From Oscillospiraceae bacterium (GTDB lineage Bacteria > Bacillota > Clostridia > Oscillospirales > UBA644), in assembly GCA_015067385.1 (NCBI GenBank), contig SVMP01000002.1, positions 1-43,612 of the forward strand: a stretch of DNA of 43,612 nt, in the 5' to 3' direction. The notes beneath the pieces are model-generated. The model ran no database searches. It worked only from the letters and a program-made list of their open reading frames with translations, and had not been told where the DNA came from. Positions 17,037 to 33,201 of the stretch are shown here, piece by piece. The translations under genes were made by a program, and so were the position numbers. Numbering within the stretch: the first letter of the stretch is position 1; each line of letters starts with the position of its first letter.

Positions 17037-18821
17037 ATGCTTAAAAGAAAACATATAGATTGCGATCTTTGCGTAGTCGGCGGCGGTATGTCGGGAATGA
17101 TGGCGGCGATCGCAGCGGCAAGAGAAGGCGTTAAAGTTGTTTTAATGCACGAAAGACCTGTTTTGGGCGGCAATGCATCGTCCGAAATAAGAATGTGGAT
17201 ATGCGGAGCGGCTGACAGAGACAACAAAGAAACCGGTATATTGGAAGAAATTGCATTGGAAAATCTCTACCGTAATCCCACAAAAAGCTTTGCGATATGG
17301 GACACGGTACTCTATGATTTTGTCAAACGTGAAGAAAACATTACTCTGCTTTTGAATTGCACCTGCATGGATGCAGATACGGAAGAGGGCGAATTCAAAT
17401 ACGGCAGAACGAGAAAAATTAAGTCCGTCACGGGCTATCAGATGACTACTCAATGTTTTTACGAAGTCAGCGCAAAATATTTCTGCGACAGTTCGGGCGA
17501 CAGTATTTTAGCGCCTCTCTGTAAAGCGGAATTCCGTATCGGCCGTGAAGCGAAATCAGAGTTTAACGAAGATACCTCGATCGTTGAGGCTGACAAGATG
17601 ACGATGGGTATGTCCTGTCTTATTCAAGGCAGAGAGACAACGAAGGATATAAAATTTATTCCGCCCGAATATGTTGCGGGTATTCCCGATGAAGTTTTCG
17701 AAAACAGAACGCCGAGCATATACAACGAGTCTGAAAATTACTGGTATCTTGAGCTTGGCGGCGACAGAAATACGATCGAAGACACAGAAGAGATCCGTGA
17801 TGAGCTTGTTGTACTGGCAACAAGAATGTGGGATTTCATCAAAAACTCGGGAAAGATCGATGCAGATAAATGGGATCTTGATTTTCTCGGATTTTTACCC
17901 GGCAAACGTGAATCAAGAAGAATGTGCGGCGAATACATGATAACACAGAGGGATATCGGAGACAATGTTGTTTTCGATGACGAGATCGCATACGGCGGCT
18001 GGCCGATAGACGACCATTTCCCCGGTGGTTTTTATAACAAAGGCAGTGTAAATACATCACGTTGGACATGTTCACCGTATTCTATCCCCTATCGTGCGCT
18101 TTACTCGAAAAATATTGAGAACCTTTTCTTTGCAGGCAGAAATATCAGCATGACACATATGGCAATGAGCAGTATGCGAGTTATGGCAACATGTTCACTT
18201 CTCGGCGAAGCTGTCGGCAAGGCTGCGGCTGTTGCAACGAAAAACGGCTATACACCGCATGATGTTTATCTCAACGATAAAGATCTGCTCCAGACATTAC
18301 TTATGAATGAAGACTGCTTCCTGCCTTCAAAAACAAGAAAGATTTCGGAACTTTGCAAAAATTCAAAGTTAAATATTGAAAGCGAAGCGATAAGAAACGG
18401 TCAGGACAGAGCGCACCGCATATACGAAACAAACGAGCAGAATTTTGCTTATTTCGCAAATAAAAATGAGCAGGTAATTTACAGCTTCGAGCCTTCACAG
18501 ATAGACTCCGTTCATGTCGTTTTTGACAGCGATATCAACCGTGACACCCTGCCCGGCGGTCATTGCGAGCGAATCCATTCAACACGTGCAAATCATCTGC
18601 TGGATAGTCCGCAGATGTGTATGCCGAAAACGCTTTGCAAAGAATTCAAACTCATCGGTGAGCTTAACGGCGAACAGTTTGAGATAGCTCATGTTAAAAA
18701 CAACAGAAAAAGAGCATATCATTTTAATATCGGTAAAAAATTCGATAAACTTACGCTCATTCCCATTGATATTTGGTCTGACGCCGAAAAGATAGCTGTA
18801 GTTTCTTTCGACTTTAACTAA
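17037..18821 (+). CDS. FAD-dependent oxidoreductase of unknown substrate
   Basis: 594-aa ORF with RBS AAGGAG. It has an N-terminal dinucleotide-binding motif VVGGGMSGMMAAIAAAREG...LGGN. It is monocistronic, with its own promoter and terminator. Confidence 0.7.
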   Translation: MLKRKHIDCDLCVVGGGMSGMMAAIAAAREGVKVVLMHERPVLGGNASSEIRMWICGAADRDNKETGILEEIALENLYRNPTKSFAIWDTVLYDFVKREENITLLLNCTCMDADTEEGEFKYGRTRKIKSVTGYQMTTQCFYEVSAKYFCDSSGDSILAPLCKAEFRIGREAKSEFNEDTSIVEADKMTMGMSCLIQGRETTKDIKFIPPEYVAGIPDEVFENRTPSIYNESENYWYLELGGDRNTIEDTEEIRDELVVLATRMWDFIKNSGKIDADKWDLDFLGFLPGKRESRRMCGEYMITQRDIGDNVVFDDEIAYGGWPIDDHFPGGFYNKGSVNTSRWTCSPYSIPYRALYSKNIENLFFAGRNISMTHMAMSSMRVMATCSLLGEAVGKAAAVATKNGYTPHDVYLNDKDLLQTLLMNEDCFLPSKTRKISELCKNSKLNIESEAIRNGQDRAHRIYETNEQNFAYFANKNEQVIYSFEPSQIDSVHVVFDSDINRDTLPGGHCERIHSTRANHLLDSPQMCMPKTLCKEFKLIGELNGEQFEIAHVKNNRKRAYHFNIGKKFDKLTLIPIDIWSDAEKIAVVSFDFN

Positions 18822-18844: not shown

Positions 18845-19058
18845 GCGTGATACTCTTAACGGAGTATCACGCAACTCTATTCGCCTACGGCGAGTGATAT
18901 TGCGGCAACGGTTACGTTGCAAATGCAGTGATATTTGGCTTTCAGCCAAGTTTTATTTGCTTCGCAAGTTGTTTGCGAATAGAATATCACGAAACCGATA
19001 GGTTTCATATCACTTTTGCAAAGCGAAAATATCACGCTGACTTTAGTCAGCATATCAC
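18845..19058. repeat. Heptamer-punctuated hairpin array, copy 1
   Basis: GTGATAC/GTGATAT at 18847, 18894 and 18928. GTATCAC/ATATCAC at 18864, 18984, 19007, 19029 and 19052. Between them lie 8 different short hairpins: 18845-18872, 18881-18893, 18905-18920, 18935-18949, 18961-18979, 18991-19006, 19014-19028 and 19036-19051. Confidence 0.8.
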
Positions 19059-19074
19059 TTAGCAGACAAAAGAA

Positions 19075-19117
19075 AGAGAAGACTCGTTTACATACGAATC
19101 TTCTCTTTTCTGTTATT
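19075..19117 (+). terminator. Intrinsic terminator closing the FAD-oxidoreductase / array-1 transcript
   Basis: AGAGAAGACTCGT (19075-19087) pairs with ACGAATCTTCTCT (19094-19106) at 12 of 13 bp. TTTCTGTTATT follows. Confidence 0.7.
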
Positions 19118-19245
19118 AGTAGGTTTGGGCTACTGCCCAAGTGCGTTTGTACATATAAATGCGATACAGGTTCTTAACAAGAAATGAAAGTACGTTCAAA
19201 TTCTACGTTAAGGAACTCACCGTTTTTGTCTGAGGAGTTGTCTTT

Positions 19246-19776
19246 TTATTCTTTTACGGTAACAAGTTCGTCGAAAGCTTTGCGTTTTTTCTCACGGAGC
19301 TTGTCGTTTTCGTTTGCGTAACCGAGAGAAATAACAAGTCTTACAGGCTCGTCAATACCGCAAAGTTTGCGTATCTTTTGATCGTCGAACCAGCCGAGGA
19401 TGCAAGTTGAAAGACCTTGGGCTGTGGCTTCGGCGGTAAGATAAGCGGTTGTGATACCGATATCGATCGAACGGTAGTCGTTGCCCTTTATTTTCGCTCC
19501 GAAAGCGGCTGATTTAACATAAGATTTTTCCGAAACAACTATCATCACGGGAGCATTCTCGGTAAATTTATTCATACCCATGCCCGTTGTTGCAAGCGCC
19601 ACCTGCTTTGCGATATCGTTTTTGCAAACAGTAAAATGATACGGCTGACCGTTACAAGCGGACGGAGCAAGAATTGCGGAACGAAGGATAGCGTCGATTT
19701 TTTCCTGTTCAACAGGACGATCGGGATCGTAATTTCTGCAGGACTGACGATTGAGAGCAATTTCTGTAAAATTCAT
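19246..19776 (-). CDS. Nitroreductase-family protein
   Basis: The track ORF is 19246-19794. The likely start is ATG 19776 (MNFTEIALNRQSCRNY), typical of the nitroreductase N-terminus. Confidence 0.8.
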   Translation of the reverse strand: MNFTEIALNRQSCRNYDPDRPVEQEKIDAILRSAILAPSACNGQPYHFTVCKNDIAKQVALATTGMGMNKFTENAPVMIVVSEKSYVKSAAFGAKIKGNDYRSIDIGITTAYLTAEATAQGLSTCILGWFDDQKIRKLCGIDEPVRLVISLGYANENDKLREKKRKAFDELVTVKE

Positions 19777-19790
19777 AAATAACATCCTTG

Positions 19791-21164
19791 TCAATTGTTT
19801 TCGGGAACAGAGCCGAATTCTCTGACGTGCTTACGGTAAACAAATACGAAAGCCACGAACTGAAGAATAAGCGTAAATGTCCAGGATACAACGTATGAAA
19901 AATAGAGGCATTCGGGAGTATGGAACTGTTCCATACGGAAGATGGTGTAGATCCACGTAATACGGACGCCGCAGACACCGAGGATAGAAATAACCATCGG
20001 GATAAGAGACGAACCCATACCGCGAAGCGCACCCGTAGAAACTTCCATAAGACCGCAGAGGAAGTAAGGCAAGCTTACATAAGCAAGACGGACAAGGCCG
20101 TATTTGATCGCTTCGGGAGAGTCGGTTATATAAATAGAAAGGAGCTGTTCTCCGAAGAAATACGCGAGAAAACCTGTTACTGCGCCAACGACGGTAACGG
20201 AAACCGCACACATCCAAACGATCTTCGAAACACGTTTATACTGTCTTGCACCTGAGTTCTGACCGACAAAATTGACGGTTGTCTGATAAAAAGCATTAAG
20301 ACAAACATAAACAAAGCCTTCAATATTACCGGCTGCGGCATTACCCGACATAAAGATGTCGCCGAAAGAGTTGATAGAAGACTGAATGATTACGTTGGAA
20401 ATAGAGAAAAGCGAACCTTGAATACCTGCGGGAAGACCTATCTGAATGATAAGAAGAAGCTGACGTTTATAAAAACGTATTTTGGAAAGGACGAGCTTGC
20501 TTGCATCCGTTCTGCGCATAAGAGCGATAACAACAAGAACTGCCGAAACACCCTGCGAGATCGTTGTCGCAAGAGCAACGCCTGCAACGTTCATGTTAAA
20601 AACGGTAACAAAAAAGACGTTTAAAACAACATTTACAACACCTGCTATAGACAGGAAGAGCAGCGGGCTTTTTGTATCGCCGACAGCACGAAGGATGGAC
20701 GAACAGAAGTTGTAAATCATTGAGAACGTAATACCGCCGAAATATATCTTCATATAGACAGAGGAAAGCGCAAGAACATTTTCCGGGGTATCCATCATGC
20801 GAAGGAACTCTTCAGAGAAAAGAACGCCAACGAAAGTGAGAACGATACCGCCGACTATAGCAGTCGGAATAGCTGTGTGAACGGTTCTGTGAACCATAAC
20901 ATCGTCTTTGCTTCCGTAAGCTCTCGCAACGGCAACGCCTGCACCTACAGACAAACCTATAAAAAGATTGACTATGAGATTTGTTATCGAGCCTGTTGCT
21001 CCGACAGCGGCGACTGAAACGCTTCCGCAGAATCTGCCGACAATAACAAGGTCAGCCGCATTAAAAAGAAGCTGAAGAATACTCGTAAGAATTATCGGGA
21101 TCGTATATGTAACGATATTTAAAAACAGCGGTCCCTGAAGAATTGAATTGTTTGATCTTGCCAT
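19791..21164 (-). CDS. MATE-family efflux transporter
   Basis: 457-aa polytopic membrane ORF. Its N-terminus (PLFLNIVTYTIPIILTSILQLLFNAADLVIVGRF) is typical of the MATE/NorM family. Confidence 0.9.
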   Translation of the reverse strand: MARSNNSILQGPLFLNIVTYTIPIILTSILQLLFNAADLVIVGRFCGSVSVAAVGATGSITNLIVNLFIGLSVGAGVAVARAYGSKDDVMVHRTVHTAIPTAIVGGIVLTFVGVLFSEEFLRMMDTPENVLALSSVYMKIYFGGITFSMIYNFCSSILRAVGDTKSPLLFLSIAGVVNVVLNVFFVTVFNMNVAGVALATTISQGVSAVLVVIALMRRTDASKLVLSKIRFYKRQLLLIIQIGLPAGIQGSLFSISNVIIQSSINSFGDIFMSGNAAAGNIEGFVYVCLNAFYQTTVNFVGQNSGARQYKRVSKIVWMCAVSVTVVGAVTGFLAYFFGEQLLSIYITDSPEAIKYGLVRLAYVSLPYFLCGLMEVSTGALRGMGSSLIPMVISILGVCGVRITWIYTIFRMEQFHTPECLYFSYVVSWTFTLILQFVAFVFVYRKHVREFGSVPENN

Positions 21165-31826: not shown

Positions 31827-32417
31827 TTATAATAGATTATATTTATTGAGTATTTGTGCTTCTTCCCAATATCGAGGAAATTTTTTGCGAATAAATTCCA
31901 AGCTGGGATGATCCGAATCATCCAGTAAATTATGATGTTTAATAAAACGTGTGATATGACCGCGAATTATATCTTTTCGCCATTGAGGTAAATCTTCATA
32001 GCGTTCATAAACAAATTTCCCATTTTCAGAATAGGATAAAATATGTTCATAAACGTCTTCTATATACTCAAACGAAGTAATCGGAACAACTTTATTCGAA
32101 GTCGCACAAGTATTAATATGAGTTTCCGAATTCAGGGAACAATCCCCATCACATTCATATATATAACCGTCGACACCCTTATAAAGATACTCAAGAGCAT
32201 TGGGGAACATTTCCTGAAAAACAATAGTTCCGTCAGAGCGAATATCTATCATTGGCATTTTTATTTTTCCGAGACGTTTTACATCCCAAATGTAATGTAA
32301 AGCCAATTGTCTGCTGGTGGTAAGATAAACAAGAGGATCCTTTATATACGCATTGACTGCATAATCAGGACATAATTCTGTTAATCCTTTGACCGTCGAA
32401 CCATGATAGAATTTCAT
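31827..32417 (-). CDS. Hypothetical protein, possibly ADP-ribosyltransferase-fold (DUF3990-like)
   Basis: The track ORF is 31827-32483. The likely start is ATG 32417 after GGGAGG. The N-terminal MKFYHGS ... VYLTTS ... GYIYE spacing recalls the H-Y-E ART fold. The fold call is weak. Confidence 0.6.
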   Translation of the reverse strand: MKFYHGSTVKGLTELCPDYAVNAYIKDPLVYLTTSRQLALHYIWDVKRLGKIKMPMIDIRSDGTIVFQEMFPNALEYLYKGVDGYIYECDGDCSLNSETHINTCATSNKVVPITSFEYIEDVYEHILSYSENGKFVYERYEDLPQWRKDIIRGHITRFIKHHNLLDDSDHPSLEFIRKKFPRYWEEAQILNKYNLL

Positions 32418-32454
32418 ATTTGTACCTCCCGAGGATAGAATTTTGGTTAATATA

Positions 32455-32483
32455 AATATATCACACCAAAACACAAAAAACAA
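32455..32483 (-). promoter_or_regulatory. Candidate promoter of the 31827-32417 gene
   Basis: On the minus strand: TTGTTT (32483-32478), 17-bp spacer, TGaTATATT (32463-32455). Confidence 0.45.
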
Positions 32484-32486
32484 GAC

Positions 32487-32515
32487 TTGTAATTTGTATT
32501 TATTTATGGTATAAT
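32487..32515 (+). promoter_or_regulatory. Orphan sigma-A type promoter facing an untranslated region
   Basis: TTGTAA at 32487-32492, 17-bp spacer, TGgTATAAT at 32507-32515. Confidence 0.5.
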
Positions 32516-32521
32516 ATTAAT

Positions 32522-32613
32522 GTACCAAAACTCTTGTAGGAGTAATCTCATAACACAAATTCTATAATAGTGTCTTTATTTTCCGGAAGCCGAAAAGGTT
32601 TTCGGATTTTTTT
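32522..32613 (+). ncRNA. Candidate small RNA of about 90 nt (promoter to terminator, no credible ORF)
   Basis: Bounded by the 32487-32515 promoter and a hairpin (TCCGGAA 32582-32588 / TTTCGGA 32600-32606) followed by seven T residues (32607-32613). Confidence 0.3.
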
Positions 32614-32651
32614 AATTATAACACATAATTTTCTGTTTGGCAAGTAAAAAA

Positions 32652-32680
32652 ATCAAGTCTTACGACTTGATTTGATTTTG
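32652..32680. terminator. Second hairpin terminator, bidirectional in appearance
   Basis: ATCAAGTC (32652-32659) pairs with GACTTGAT (32664-32671). It is preceded by A7 and followed by TTGATTTT. Confidence 0.45.
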
Positions 32681-32780
32681 TATATATGCTAAAAAATTTT
32701 TCATCAATTTTACATAAAACCTTGCGAAGCGGTTTTGTGAAAGGGTTATAAAAAGATATTTTTACTGTTTTTGCGTATGA

Positions 32781-32974
32781 ATTCGAATTTTCGAATAGTT
32801 TTTAGTGATATTCTGTCTTTGACAGAGTGATATTTTCTCTTCGAGAAAGTGATATTGAAACCTTACGGTTTCAGTAATATTATATTCGCCTTAAAACTCG
32901 CGAAGCGAATATCACTTGAACTTTAGTTCAAATATAACTGCGTAGCAATAACACTCGCCGCATGCGAATATAAC
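32781..32974. repeat. Heptamer-punctuated hairpin array, copy 2
   Basis: GTGATAT at 32805, 32827 and 32849, and GTAATAT at 32874. ATATCAC at 32909, ATATAAC at 32932, ATAACAC at 32948 and ATATAAC at 32968. Perfect hairpins lie between them at 32781-32796, 32812-32826, 32834-32848, 32856-32873, 32882-32912, 32916-32931, 32939-32947 and 32955-32967. Confidence 0.8.
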
Positions 32975-32976
32975 TG

Positions 32977-33007
32977 AAAAACCGACTTGTCGAAACAAGT
33001 CGGTTTT
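32977..33007. terminator. Bidirectional intrinsic terminator (tRNA operon on the minus strand, array 2 on the plus strand)
   Basis: AAAACCGACTTGT (32978-32990) pairs with ACAAGTCGGTTTT (32995-33007) around loop CGAA. Confidence 0.8.
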
Positions 33008-33008
33008 C

Positions 33009-33093
33009 TGGTGGGGGAAGGTGGATTCGGACCACCGAAGTCACTGACAACAGATTTACAGTCTGCCCCCTTTGGCCGCTCGGGAATTCCCCC
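33009..33093 (-). tRNA. tRNA-Tyr (anticodon GTA), class II with long variable arm, CCA encoded
   Basis: The reverse complement reads GGGGGAATTCCCGAGCGGCCAAAGGGGGCAGACTGTAAATCTGT...GGTCCGAATCCACCTTCCCCCACCA. The anticodon loop is CTGTAAA. Confidence 0.9.
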
Positions 33094-33126
33094 ATACTAT
33101 TTAGTTGTTTCAGCCGTTAAGACTGG

Positions 33127-33201
33127 TGGAGCTGGTGAACGGAGTCGAACCATCAACCTGCTGATTACAAATCAGCTGCTCTGCCATTGAGCCACACCAG
33201 C
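33127..33201 (-). tRNA. tRNA-Thr (anticodon TGT), CCA encoded
   Basis: The reverse complement reads GCTGGTGTGGCTCAATGGCAGAGCAGCTGATTTGTAATCAGCAGGTTGATGGTTCGACTCCGTTCACCAGCTCCA. It has a 7-bp acceptor stem and anticodon loop TTTGTAA. Confidence 0.9.

Follow-up and report, generated by a model that had tools for sequence, protein, structure and literature searches.

The closest described relative of the element treated here is Gut-1, which was introduced by Weinberg et al. (2010, Genome Biol 11:R31; PMC2864571) as a candidate small RNA (sRNA) supported by covariation, with no function proposed, and which was reported solely from human-gut metagenome sequences. The Rfam model of the family (RF01706, curated cut-off 50 bits) is 77 nt long and describes three hairpins separated by the heptamer GUGAAAU. 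No literature after the discovery paper was found for Gut-1, RF01706 or the heptamer. The window analysed here is the whole 43,612-nt stretch of contig SVMP01000002.1 from an Oscillospiraceae bacterium, a piece of Clostridia chromosome with housekeeping genes, and it contains two arrays in which short hairpins alternate with heptamers of the Gut-1 type. With high confidence, both are paralogous copies of a structured element of the Gut-1 family, ~170–270 nt in length, array 1 being copy 1 (minus strand) and array 2 copy 2 (plus strand).

At the curated Rfam threshold, tRNAs alone are found in the window; Gut-1 matches appear when results are reported by E-value. There are four such matches, one to each arm of each copy (Table 1), with E-values of 1.7e-8 to 3e-5, all under the 50-bit cut-off and all covering the full model, and the alignment of arm 1 spans model positions 1–77 of 77. 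Homologues alignable with copy 1 in three related loci (L007, L043 and L103; L-numbers are the locus labels of relatives from our scans) score 60.3, 56.5, 52.1 and 51.5 bits, again on both arms and on opposite strands. Because these close relatives pass the cut-off with the same model, the window elements are taken to be Gut-1 members missed narrowly. Arm 1 of both copies shows the feature that characterizes Gut-1, three consecutive short hairpins bounded by a GUGAWAU-type heptamer, as four heptamers and three hairpins with a 22–23-nt period; compensatory stem variation was also found, with all 15 pairs of hairpins 1–3 varying and 14 of them showing double changes. The likeness extends to CUUCG-type loops, covariation and an origin in gut or rumen Clostridia, and the flanks of the published seed alignment already hold two-armed GUGAUAU-type sequences. 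The differences are that the window heptamer is GUGAUAU rather than the consensus GUGAAAU, and that the 77-nt model represents one arm: the inverted arm 2, the 10-bp long-range helix, an alternative hairpin 7, the terminator and the subfamily flanks are not in the published description. As the model matches the two arms on opposite strands, only one of the two matches can be in the RNA sense if there is a single transcript. No Rfam family other than Gut-1 and tRNA was detected in the arrays and their relatives at E < 0.05. The maintenance of pairing while sequence drifts is already the basis of the Gut-1 family, catalogued in 2010, and is not new in itself; what goes beyond the published description is the two-arm anatomy, the covarying long-range helix, the adjacency to tRNA genes and terminators, the copy density and the lack of wobble pairs. 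Gut-1 is an orphan family widespread in gut and rumen Clostridia, and the fuller anatomy, of modest importance, provides handles for experiments and for an improved family model.

The ATATCAC/GTGATAT heptamer occurs 17 times in the window, with 4.6 occurrences expected and 17 reached in none of 100 shuffles. Ten of these sites fall inside the two arrays, where GTGATAT occupies the left part and ATATCAC the right part with a 22–23-bp period. All 14 spacers between heptamers are end-anchored hairpins, 11 of them with the maximum possible pairing for their length, and against composition-preserving shuffles the p of each spacer is 2e-4 to 0.03. The two arrays fold with z-scores of −11.1 and −6.3, and those for either strand of either array range from −6.3 to −11.8. 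That the arrays might be two unrelated clusters of small palindromes with no common origin has a single point on its side, namely that the two hairpins first compared between the arrays are not homologous (see below); the heptamer excess, the 14 of 14 hairpin spacers, the fold z-scores of −6 to −12, the Rfam E-values of ~1e-8 and the more than 150 homologous copies refute it, and its probability is negligible.

One genome per species was scanned with a pattern, which gave 120 loci, mostly from Clostridia, Acutalibacteraceae and Oscillospiraceae assemblies obtained from gut and rumen samples. The family set used below comprises ~60 complete relatives from genomes and 91 copies from metagenomes, for which the scan was anchored at the opposite end of the element. 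About 160 related copies follow a common plan: arm 1, a long helix that encloses the inverted arm 2, and an end hairpin. The plan is described here in the H1-to-H8 direction, from the first GTGATAT heptamer toward the terminator-type hairpin, with H denoting a heptamer and hp a hairpin. Arm 1 has the order H1-hp1-H2-hp2-H3-hp3-H4, with exactly four heptamers in 101 of 140 copies, and in an unbiased sample GTGATAT was found at 143 of 174 heptamer positions. The long-range helix of 10 bp is formed by the 5' strand TNTATTCGCC and the 3' strand GGCGAATAN'A, in which N and N' covary as A-T, C-G and T-A; its 5' strand is followed by a short linker ending in AAC. Arm 2 contains three to four hairpins and consists of hp4, H5, hp5, H6, hp6 (usually TGC-GAA-GCA) and H7, followed by TCGCC and a loop, and its heptamers have the form ATAnnAC, most often ATATCAC. 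The 3' strand of the long helix overlaps the last and most degenerate heptamer (ATATAAC, ATAAAAC or ATAGAGT), and its GGCGA has the neighbouring TCGCC as an alternative partner, with which it can form hp7; conservation extends to both pairings. The element ends in a hairpin that is usually of terminator type. Heptamers of the GTGATAT type always precede those of the ATATCAC type and the order is never reversed. Arm 1 is missing from 21 of the 91 metagenomic copies, which consist of arm 2 and the terminator alone, while L013 lacks arm 2 and retains the long helix with a short loop, which gives arm 2 the look of an insertion into a fourth hairpin's loop.

Variant arrays, mostly of a single-arm GTGATAT form with four to six hairpins, were observed in other Clostridia (L020, L026, L027, L032, L052–L054, L063, L069, L076, L079, L083 and L108). 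The 3' tails of the single-arm arrays differ and are either GTTGTGGAATATT-type palindromes or direct terminators; the single-arm array of L026 stands directly before a Shine-Dalgarno site and start codon, L053 is a tandem pair of arrays, and L027 has two arms in a 6+4 form that lacks the TATTCGCC helix. The 77-nt Rfam model falls far short of this diversity. Nested insertions were seen in copy 1, where GCAACG-TAAC-CGTTGC lies within hairpin 6 (window 18901–18927, minus strand), and in L060, L080 and L093, where a GGGGTCCCC...-type hairpin lies within the hairpin-7 loop; some loops thus tolerate nested inserts, as the long helix does arm 2.

Pairing was assessed on alignment A1 of 50 relatives, which served for RNAalifold and for all covariation scores. 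RNAalifold independently predicts hp1–hp3, hp4, hp5 and the long-range helix, with compensatory changes in 20 of 40 pairs. In the 34-pair structure, 96.9% of cells are paired versus 76.8% in shuffles, and double (compensatory) changes are found in 21 of the 34 pairs (278 cells). The covariation score of 0.463 compares with 0.108 in shuffles, none of 500 of which reaches it, and does not exceed 0.077 when partners are slid by 1–3 columns. Each arm-1 hairpin position is occupied by 13–15 distinct stems, which pair at 92–95% in cis versus 42–49% in trans. The long-range helix is invariant save at position 2, where A-T is found in 27 sequences, C-G in 11, T-A in 11 and a mismatch in one. An earlier reading of the window made from the letters alone (the sequence-only reading) had proposed a structured nucleic acid selected for pairing over sequence, and this alignment supports that proposal. 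A zipped ladder between the GUGAUAU heptamers of arm 1 and the AUAUCAC heptamers of arm 2 was not supported: in 89 elements nested heptamer pairs were no more complementary than permuted ones (permutation p = 0.08, 0.23, 0.73 and 0.96), which is not a strict exclusion because most heptamers are invariant, and the single-sequence minimum free energy (MFE) fold of copy 1 does pair arm-1 with arm-2 heptamers.

The sequence-only reading had based its case for covariation on two hairpins, ATATCAC-GCTGAC-TTTA-GTCAGC-ATATCAC (19029–19058) and ATATCAC-TTGAAC-TTTA-GTTCAA-ATATAAC (32909–32938), in which four stem pairs differ and all are compensated. The sequences are correctly given, but the hairpins are not positional homologues, and by that reading's own account this undoes the comparison. 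Because the two arrays lie on opposite strands, hp1 in arm 1 of copy 1, seen in antisense (19036–19051; sense-strand loop TAAA), had been set against hp5 in arm 2 of copy 2 (32916–32931). The two look alike because arm-2 modules have a polarity opposite to that of arm-1 modules, and they contain no covariation information because any two perfect hairpins of equal length differ by compensated pairs by construction. The recurrences of GAAACC/GGTTTC and TCGCC/GGCGA stems pointed out at the same time are real, and after reverse-complementing array 1 they prove to be true homologues (hp3 and hp7, respectively). As these recurrences are the same positions on opposite strands, and as stem repertoires are position-specific with almost no stem words common to different positions, the suggestion that modules are shuffled between copies was abandoned; the family's hp1 stems include TCTGTG, TCTTTG, GCTGAC and TCCGAC among others, while hp3 is mostly TGAAAC and hp5 mostly TCGGCG. 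When homologous positions of copies 1 and 2 are compared, hp1 (GCTGAC/GTCAGC versus TCTGTC/GACAGA) differs at two pairs, hp2 by G-C to T-A, hp4 by T-A to C-G and hp5 at two pairs, all of them compensated, and the long-range helix differs by C-G to A-T.

The features of both copies are collected in Table 1. The 5' module of copy 1, terminator-like on the minus strand, contains a conserved T·G wobble that exists on that strand only, and is kept together with the array in L007, L043, L047, L080, L093 and L103 in non-syntenic contexts. The 3' hairpin of copy 1 is subfamily-specific and is kept in L007, L043, L047, L093 and L051. In copy 2 the long helix comprises 9 bp and one terminal mismatch and is formed in the MFE fold.

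Table 1. Positions of the two Gut-1-family elements, their parts and their Rfam matches in the window
Feature	Position	Strand	Description
Copy 1, whole unit	18845–19108	minus	Terminator-like 5' hairpin, arm 1, long helix around arm 2, hairpin at the 3' end; agrees with the family module by module
Copy 1, 5' module	19059–19108	minus	Hairpin AAAGAGAAGATTCGT/ACGAGTCTTCTCTTT, then T-run and TAA, up to the first heptamer
Copy 1, arm 1	18984–19058	minus	H1-hp1-H2-hp2-H3-hp3-H4; GTGATAT x4; hairpins GCTGAC/TAAA, TTTCGC/TTT (one C·A mismatch), GAAACC/TATC; holds the 19029–19058 hairpin of the sequence-only reading; best Gut-1 match of copy 1
Copy 1, long helix 5' strand	18974–18983	minus	TCTATTCGCA; pairs with 18876–18885; C-G pair at position 2 covaries across the family
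Copy 1, arm 2	18886–18973	minus	Inverted polarity; second Gut-1 match, on plus strand; linker AACAAC, hp4 TTGC-GAA-GCAA, ATAAAAC, hp5 TTGGC-TGAA-AGCCAA, ATATCAC; then hp6 TGC...GCA with inner hairpin GCAACG-TAAC-CGTTGC, ATATCAC, TCGCC-GTA of hp7
Copy 1, long helix 3' strand	18876–18885	minus	GGCGAATAGA; first 5 nt can instead close hp7 with TCGCC (18889–18893)
Copy 1, 3' hairpin	18845–18872	minus	GCGTGATACTCC-GTTAA-GAGTATCACGC; 11-nt perfect inverted repeat
Gut-1 match, array 1	18979–19060	minus	46.9 bits
Gut-1 match, array 1	18872–18961	plus	34.1 bits
Copy 2, whole unit	32805–33009	plus	First heptamer to terminator end
Copy 2, arm 1	32805–32880	plus	GTGATAT x3 and GTAATAT; hairpins TCTGTC/TTT, TTTCTC/TTC, TGAAACC/TTAC
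Copy 2, long helix 5' strand	32881–32890	plus	TATATTCGCC; pairs with 32963–32972 (TGCGAATATA)
Copy 2, arm 2	32891–32962	plus	Linker TTAAAAC, hp4–hp6 and start of hp7: hp4 TCGC-GAA-GCGA, ATATCAC, hp5 TTGAAC-TTTA-GTTCAA (second hairpin of the sequence-only reading), ATATAAC; then hp6 TGC-GTA-GCA, ATAACAC, TCGCC-GCA of hp7
Copy 2, long helix 3' strand and last heptamer	32963–32976	plus	TGCGAATATA-ACTG
Bidirectional intrinsic terminator hairpin	32977–33009	both	AAAACCGACTTGT-CGAA-ACAAGTCGGTTTT; common to the convergent tRNA-Tyr/tRNA-Thr genes (33009–33201, minus)
Weak promoter-like site 5' of copy 2	32771–32799	plus	TTGCGT, 17 nt, AATAGT, after A/T-rich AAAAAGATATTTTT; judged by eye
Gut-1 match, array 2	32803–32885	plus	45.6 bits
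Gut-1 match, array 2	32904–32976	minus	34.3 bits

Array 1 is located between the convergent genes of an FAD-oxidoreductase (17037–18821, plus strand) and a nitroreductase (19246–19794, minus strand), and array 2 between a hypothetical gene (31827–32483, minus strand) and the tRNA-Tyr/tRNA-Thr genes. The genes next to the window copies were not found beside relatives, so the unit is independent of its neighbours, and all-against-all clustering of 478 flanking open reading frames (ORFs) detected no recurrent protein family. Read from H1 to H8, the units have a convergent 3' neighbour in 40 cases versus a co-oriented one in 11, mostly less than 50 nt away, while the 5' neighbour is unbiased. Fifteen of 67 copies, copy 2 included, have beside them a convergent tRNA gene whose 3' end is 33–43 nt away, with only the bidirectional terminator in between (L006, L008, L019, L022, L025, L030, L031, L035, L036, L044, L067, L081, L097, L107 and window 32977–33201), and ten anticodons are represented (Tyr-gta, Thr-ggt, Thr-cgt, Gln-ttg, Gln-ctg, Asn-gtt, Cys-gca, Arg-tct, Arg-ccg and Leu-taa). 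Three of these loci (L008, L035 and L107) have near-identical arrays and the same terminator hairpin beside different tRNAs in different species, and the tRNA-side placement hints at targeted insertion or duplication. Around an ascertained copy there is one extra copy per ~72 kb in two independent samples, and the window has two in 43.6 kb; extrapolated from this density, there appear to be tens of copies per genome. Copies 1 and 2 belong to different subfamilies and have closer relatives in other species (L007, L043 and L093 for copy 1; L009, L030, L071 and L116 for copy 2) than in their own genome, which indicates that the subfamilies are old and maintained.

As to how the element acts, we lean slightly toward a reading in which each copy would yield a small non-coding RNA, with transcription running from the first GTGATAT toward the terminator-type hairpin, both the action as RNA and the direction being what we infer from the sequences. 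The long-range helix spans ~85 nt and thus needs a long single strand, which was counted for RNA. In single-arm relatives such as L032, L108, L020 and L010 the heptamers stand in the GTGATAT sense and are followed by intrinsic terminators of the same sense, in agreement with the Rfam orientation of arm 1, and a terminator-like hairpin follows H8 in 80 of 121 two-arm copies. In the copy-1 subfamily the flanking hairpins contain T·G wobbles, as does, in 7 sequences, the outermost pair of the long helix; these wobbles are found on the H1-to-H8 strand only. The conserved promoter-like flank of copy 2, the conservation of the heptamer and the independence of the unit from its neighbours were likewise counted for this reading, as were the covariation and the publication of the family as an sRNA candidate. 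In such an RNA the three hairpins of 6–7 bp would act as sequence-free structural spacers between four GUGAUAU heptamers, and the 10-bp helix UNUAUUCGCC/GGCGAAUAN'A would close a multiloop with three to four further hairpins separated by AUAnnAC, with the alternative that its 3' strand could close the local hairpin UCGCC/GGCGA. The heptamers would be the displayed functional motif and the RNA a multivalent platform for a sequence-specific partner, which could be an RNA-binding protein or a complementary nucleic acid, as with decoy or sponge RNAs; the nested inverted arm and the competing helix and hairpin may offer a way to mask or expose the motifs. This decoy-type mechanism is a tentative proposal by analogy with CsrB/RsmZ (GGA motifs) and CrcZ (A-rich motifs), which likewise combine a repeated short motif, sequence-free hairpin spacing, a small terminator-ended RNA and several paralogues. 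Unlike these, Gut-1 uses the motif GUGAUAU, holds its complement in the same molecule, has a far higher copy number and no sequence relationship to them, and its transcription is a prediction.

Several observations weigh against a transcribed sRNA. Among 1744 stem pairs there are 10 G·U and 17 A·C pairs and 14 other mismatches; these counts are uninformative on the transcribed strand, and stems so poor in G·U are unusual for an RNA. Loops are of the form C-TN(N)C-G in arm 1 (86:0) and C-GN(N)A-G in arm 2 (66:2), with a closing pair that is almost always C-G, so that heptamer orientation and loop polarity flip together and one transcript carries both the motif and its complement. The same heptamer variants are common to the two arms as complements (GTTATAT/ATATAAC, GTGGTAT/ATACCAC and GTGTTAT/ATAACAC), with no covariation within elements. 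The arm-2 loops GAA, GTA and GCA closed by C-G, as in GCGAAGC, are of a type known from unusually stable mini-hairpins of DNA. A family-wide search for a promoter at a fixed distance from the first heptamer showed no positional enrichment. About 20% of copies, including copy 1 (19073–19108), have a same-strand terminator right before H1. In 95 of 121 copies the 3' hairpin qualifies as a terminator of transcription coming in on the opposite strand, and in 72 of 121 it does so for both strands; many arrays therefore look shielded from incoming transcription. The copy density, too, is more typical of extragenic repeats than of sRNA genes.

The main rival, which we regard as possible though rather unlikely, is a repeated extragenic element that acts as DNA. 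The heptamers would be protein-binding sites, arranged as two inverted sets with a 22–24-bp period in the manner of iterons, transposon ends or bacterial interspersed mosaic elements (BIMEs), the hairpins would form in transiently single-stranded DNA such as the lagging-strand template, and the unit would spread or persist as a multi-copy intergenic repeat. Strict Watson-Crick pairing with no G·U excess on either strand, the two-fold strand-symmetric design, the shared variant spectrum of the arms and the resemblance of the C-GNA-G loops to stable DNA mini-hairpins would all follow, as would tens of copies per genome that occupy intergenic sites without synteny, mainly next to gene 3' ends and frequently with terminators on either side; the covariation of the 10-mer inverted repeat could then reflect two sites of one protein instead of pairing. 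On the other hand, stems of 6–7 bp are too short for stable cruciforms in duplex DNA, a binder of double-stranded DNA leaves the variable palindromic spacers unexplained, and no transposase, REP-associated tyrosine transposase (RAYT) or other protein recurs nearby. Copies within one genome differ in nearly every stem and are still perfectly paired, unlike decaying mobile repeats; target-site duplications and conserved terminal repeats beyond the heptamers were not seen; and single-arm relatives with same-sense terminators fit an RNA gene. Less probable again is a bidirectional, cis-acting device at transcript ends, a quasi-palindromic unit placed between transcription units, in which read-through RNA of either strand would present a GUGAUAU array followed by its complement and which would serve as a fail-safe terminator, a processing or stability element, an insulator or a quencher of convergent read-through. 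It would agree with the convergent 3' neighbours, the abutting tRNA genes of ten anticodons, the 3' hairpin acting as terminator for the incoming strand or for both, and an architecture that is similar when seen from both sides, and selection for pairing on both strands would account for the lack of G·U. Yet the arrays lie beyond strong intrinsic terminators where little read-through RNA is expected, the symmetry is imperfect in that the long-range helix encloses one arm only, termination or stability alone leaves the conservation of the heptamer unexplained, and some single-arm relatives, such as L026, are upstream of genes. It is also conceivable, although we consider it rather unlikely, that Gut-1 is not a simple three-hairpin sRNA and may be one arm of a quasi-two-fold-symmetric cassette of ~200–270 nt, made up of a sense array, an inverted array nested in the covarying long-range helix, and flanking terminator modules. 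It appears to occur in tens of copies per genome in Oscillospirales-type Clostridia, with a preference for sites next to the 3' ends of genes and of many different tRNA genes. The strictly Watson-Crick stems, the polarity mirrored between strands and the GNA-type loops would then mean that the cassette acts either as single-stranded DNA or on transcripts of both strands. It would represent a new class of structured intergenic repeat, possibly self-propagating, and not a trans-acting RNA. If a DNA-level or bidirectional explanation were true, a curated "RNA family" would in fact be a new kind of structured genomic repeat.

Known DNA repeats were compared with the element and rejected as assignments. 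The repetitive extragenic palindromic (REP) sequences and BIMEs of enterobacteria are likewise multi-copy, intergenic, mostly at gene 3' ends, made of alternating palindromes with conserved linkers, and near or acting as terminators, but in REP the palindrome is conserved and the linkers vary, whereas in Gut-1 the heptamer linkers are conserved and the palindromes vary with compensation; moreover, copies differ in nearly all stems, and no RAYT or recurrent protein was present among the 478 flanking ORFs. For miniature inverted-repeat transposable elements or transposon-end arrays, flank homology ends at subfamily-specific modules, no duplications were seen and the copies are diverged yet compensated; the only trait resembling terminal inverted repeats is the inversion of the outermost heptamers (AGTGATATT ... 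AATATAACT). Integron attC sites share the primacy of structure over sequence, inverted 7-nt cores and action as folded single strands, and ATATAAC/GTTATAT fit the core RYYYAAC/GTTRRRY at 6 of 7 positions. However, attC is a single long imperfect hairpin in which the heptamers pair mutually, flanking cassettes near an integrase, while here the heptamers around each hairpin are direct repeats, the dominant heptamer has G and not T at position 3, housekeeping genes and tRNAs lie next to the arrays, and neither cassettes nor a recurring integrase are present. The heptad operators of Omega-type ribbon-helix-helix proteins (WATCACW) are contiguous and at least two in number, usually 7–10; TATCACT fits the heptad, but here hairpin spacers separate the heptamers, which recur at 22–24 bp. 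CRISPR and type III antitoxin arrays were set aside as the repeats are only 7 nt long and neither cas nor toxin genes are nearby. A phage origin was rejected, with one of 120 viral pattern matches Gut-1-like (L231) and one unannotated phage record at 76.7% identity, as was a plasmid origin, with no match in the plasmid collection. The remaining matches in the viral contigs (L121–L240, including many from giant viruses) are unrelated 21- or 24-nt tandem repeats, probably coding, L231 alone being genuine.

Further structured or promoter-like sequences were observed around the elements. A stretch of ~140 nt (window 19109–19245, minus strand) separates the nitroreductase stop codon from copy 1's terminator-like hairpin and has hairpins of its own: GTTCCTTAAC...GTTAAGAAC, GCATTTAT-ATGT-ACAAACGC and TTGGGC-AGTA-GCCCAA, then ACC..AATAACAG. 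This stretch has no Rfam match at E < 0.05 and is kept in L007, L043, L047 and L103 in non-syntenic positions. The GCATTTGT...ACAAATGC domain upstream of copy 1 was considered as an obligatory 5' domain and rejected; related hairpins are near only ~17% of arrays, on either side, and for this reason 19109–19245 looks like a separate structured module or small RNA. In one subfamily (L008, L022, L035, both copies of L098, and L025) ~50 nt 5' of the first heptamer are conserved, and the opposite strand of this L008-type flank contains a strong promoter look-alike (TTGCAC, 17 nt, TGcTATACT) followed by GGCGGTGA, with an ATG 4–6 nt further on. The divergent genes to which this ATG belongs differ and are unrelated, which gives the impression of a cassette that provides any adjoining gene with a promoter and a ribosome-binding site.

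The promoter-like site 5' of copy 2 was not flagged by the consensus scanner; the corresponding flank, TTGCGT-17-(T/A)ATAxx, is kept in L009, L030, L071 and L116 in other contexts. A second site with 10 of 12 matches (TTGAAA, 17 nt, TATTAT) lies inside arm 1 of copy 2 (32855–32883, plus strand) and is built of heptamer 3, the conserved GAAACC hairpin and heptamer 4. Such a site could drive a transcript of arm 2 alone, and might account both for the arm-2-only copies and for hairpin 3 having the best-conserved sequence of all the hairpins. To the left of copy 2 is a strong plus-strand promoter-like site, TTGTAA-17-TATAAT with TG (32487–32515), followed by terminator-like hairpins at 32582–32606 (plus strand) and 32650–32673 (both strands); there is also a minus-strand promoter-like site, TTGCCA-17-TATAAT (32643–32615). 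The arrangement suggests that 32487–32680 may contain a small unannotated transcription unit of ~90 nt.

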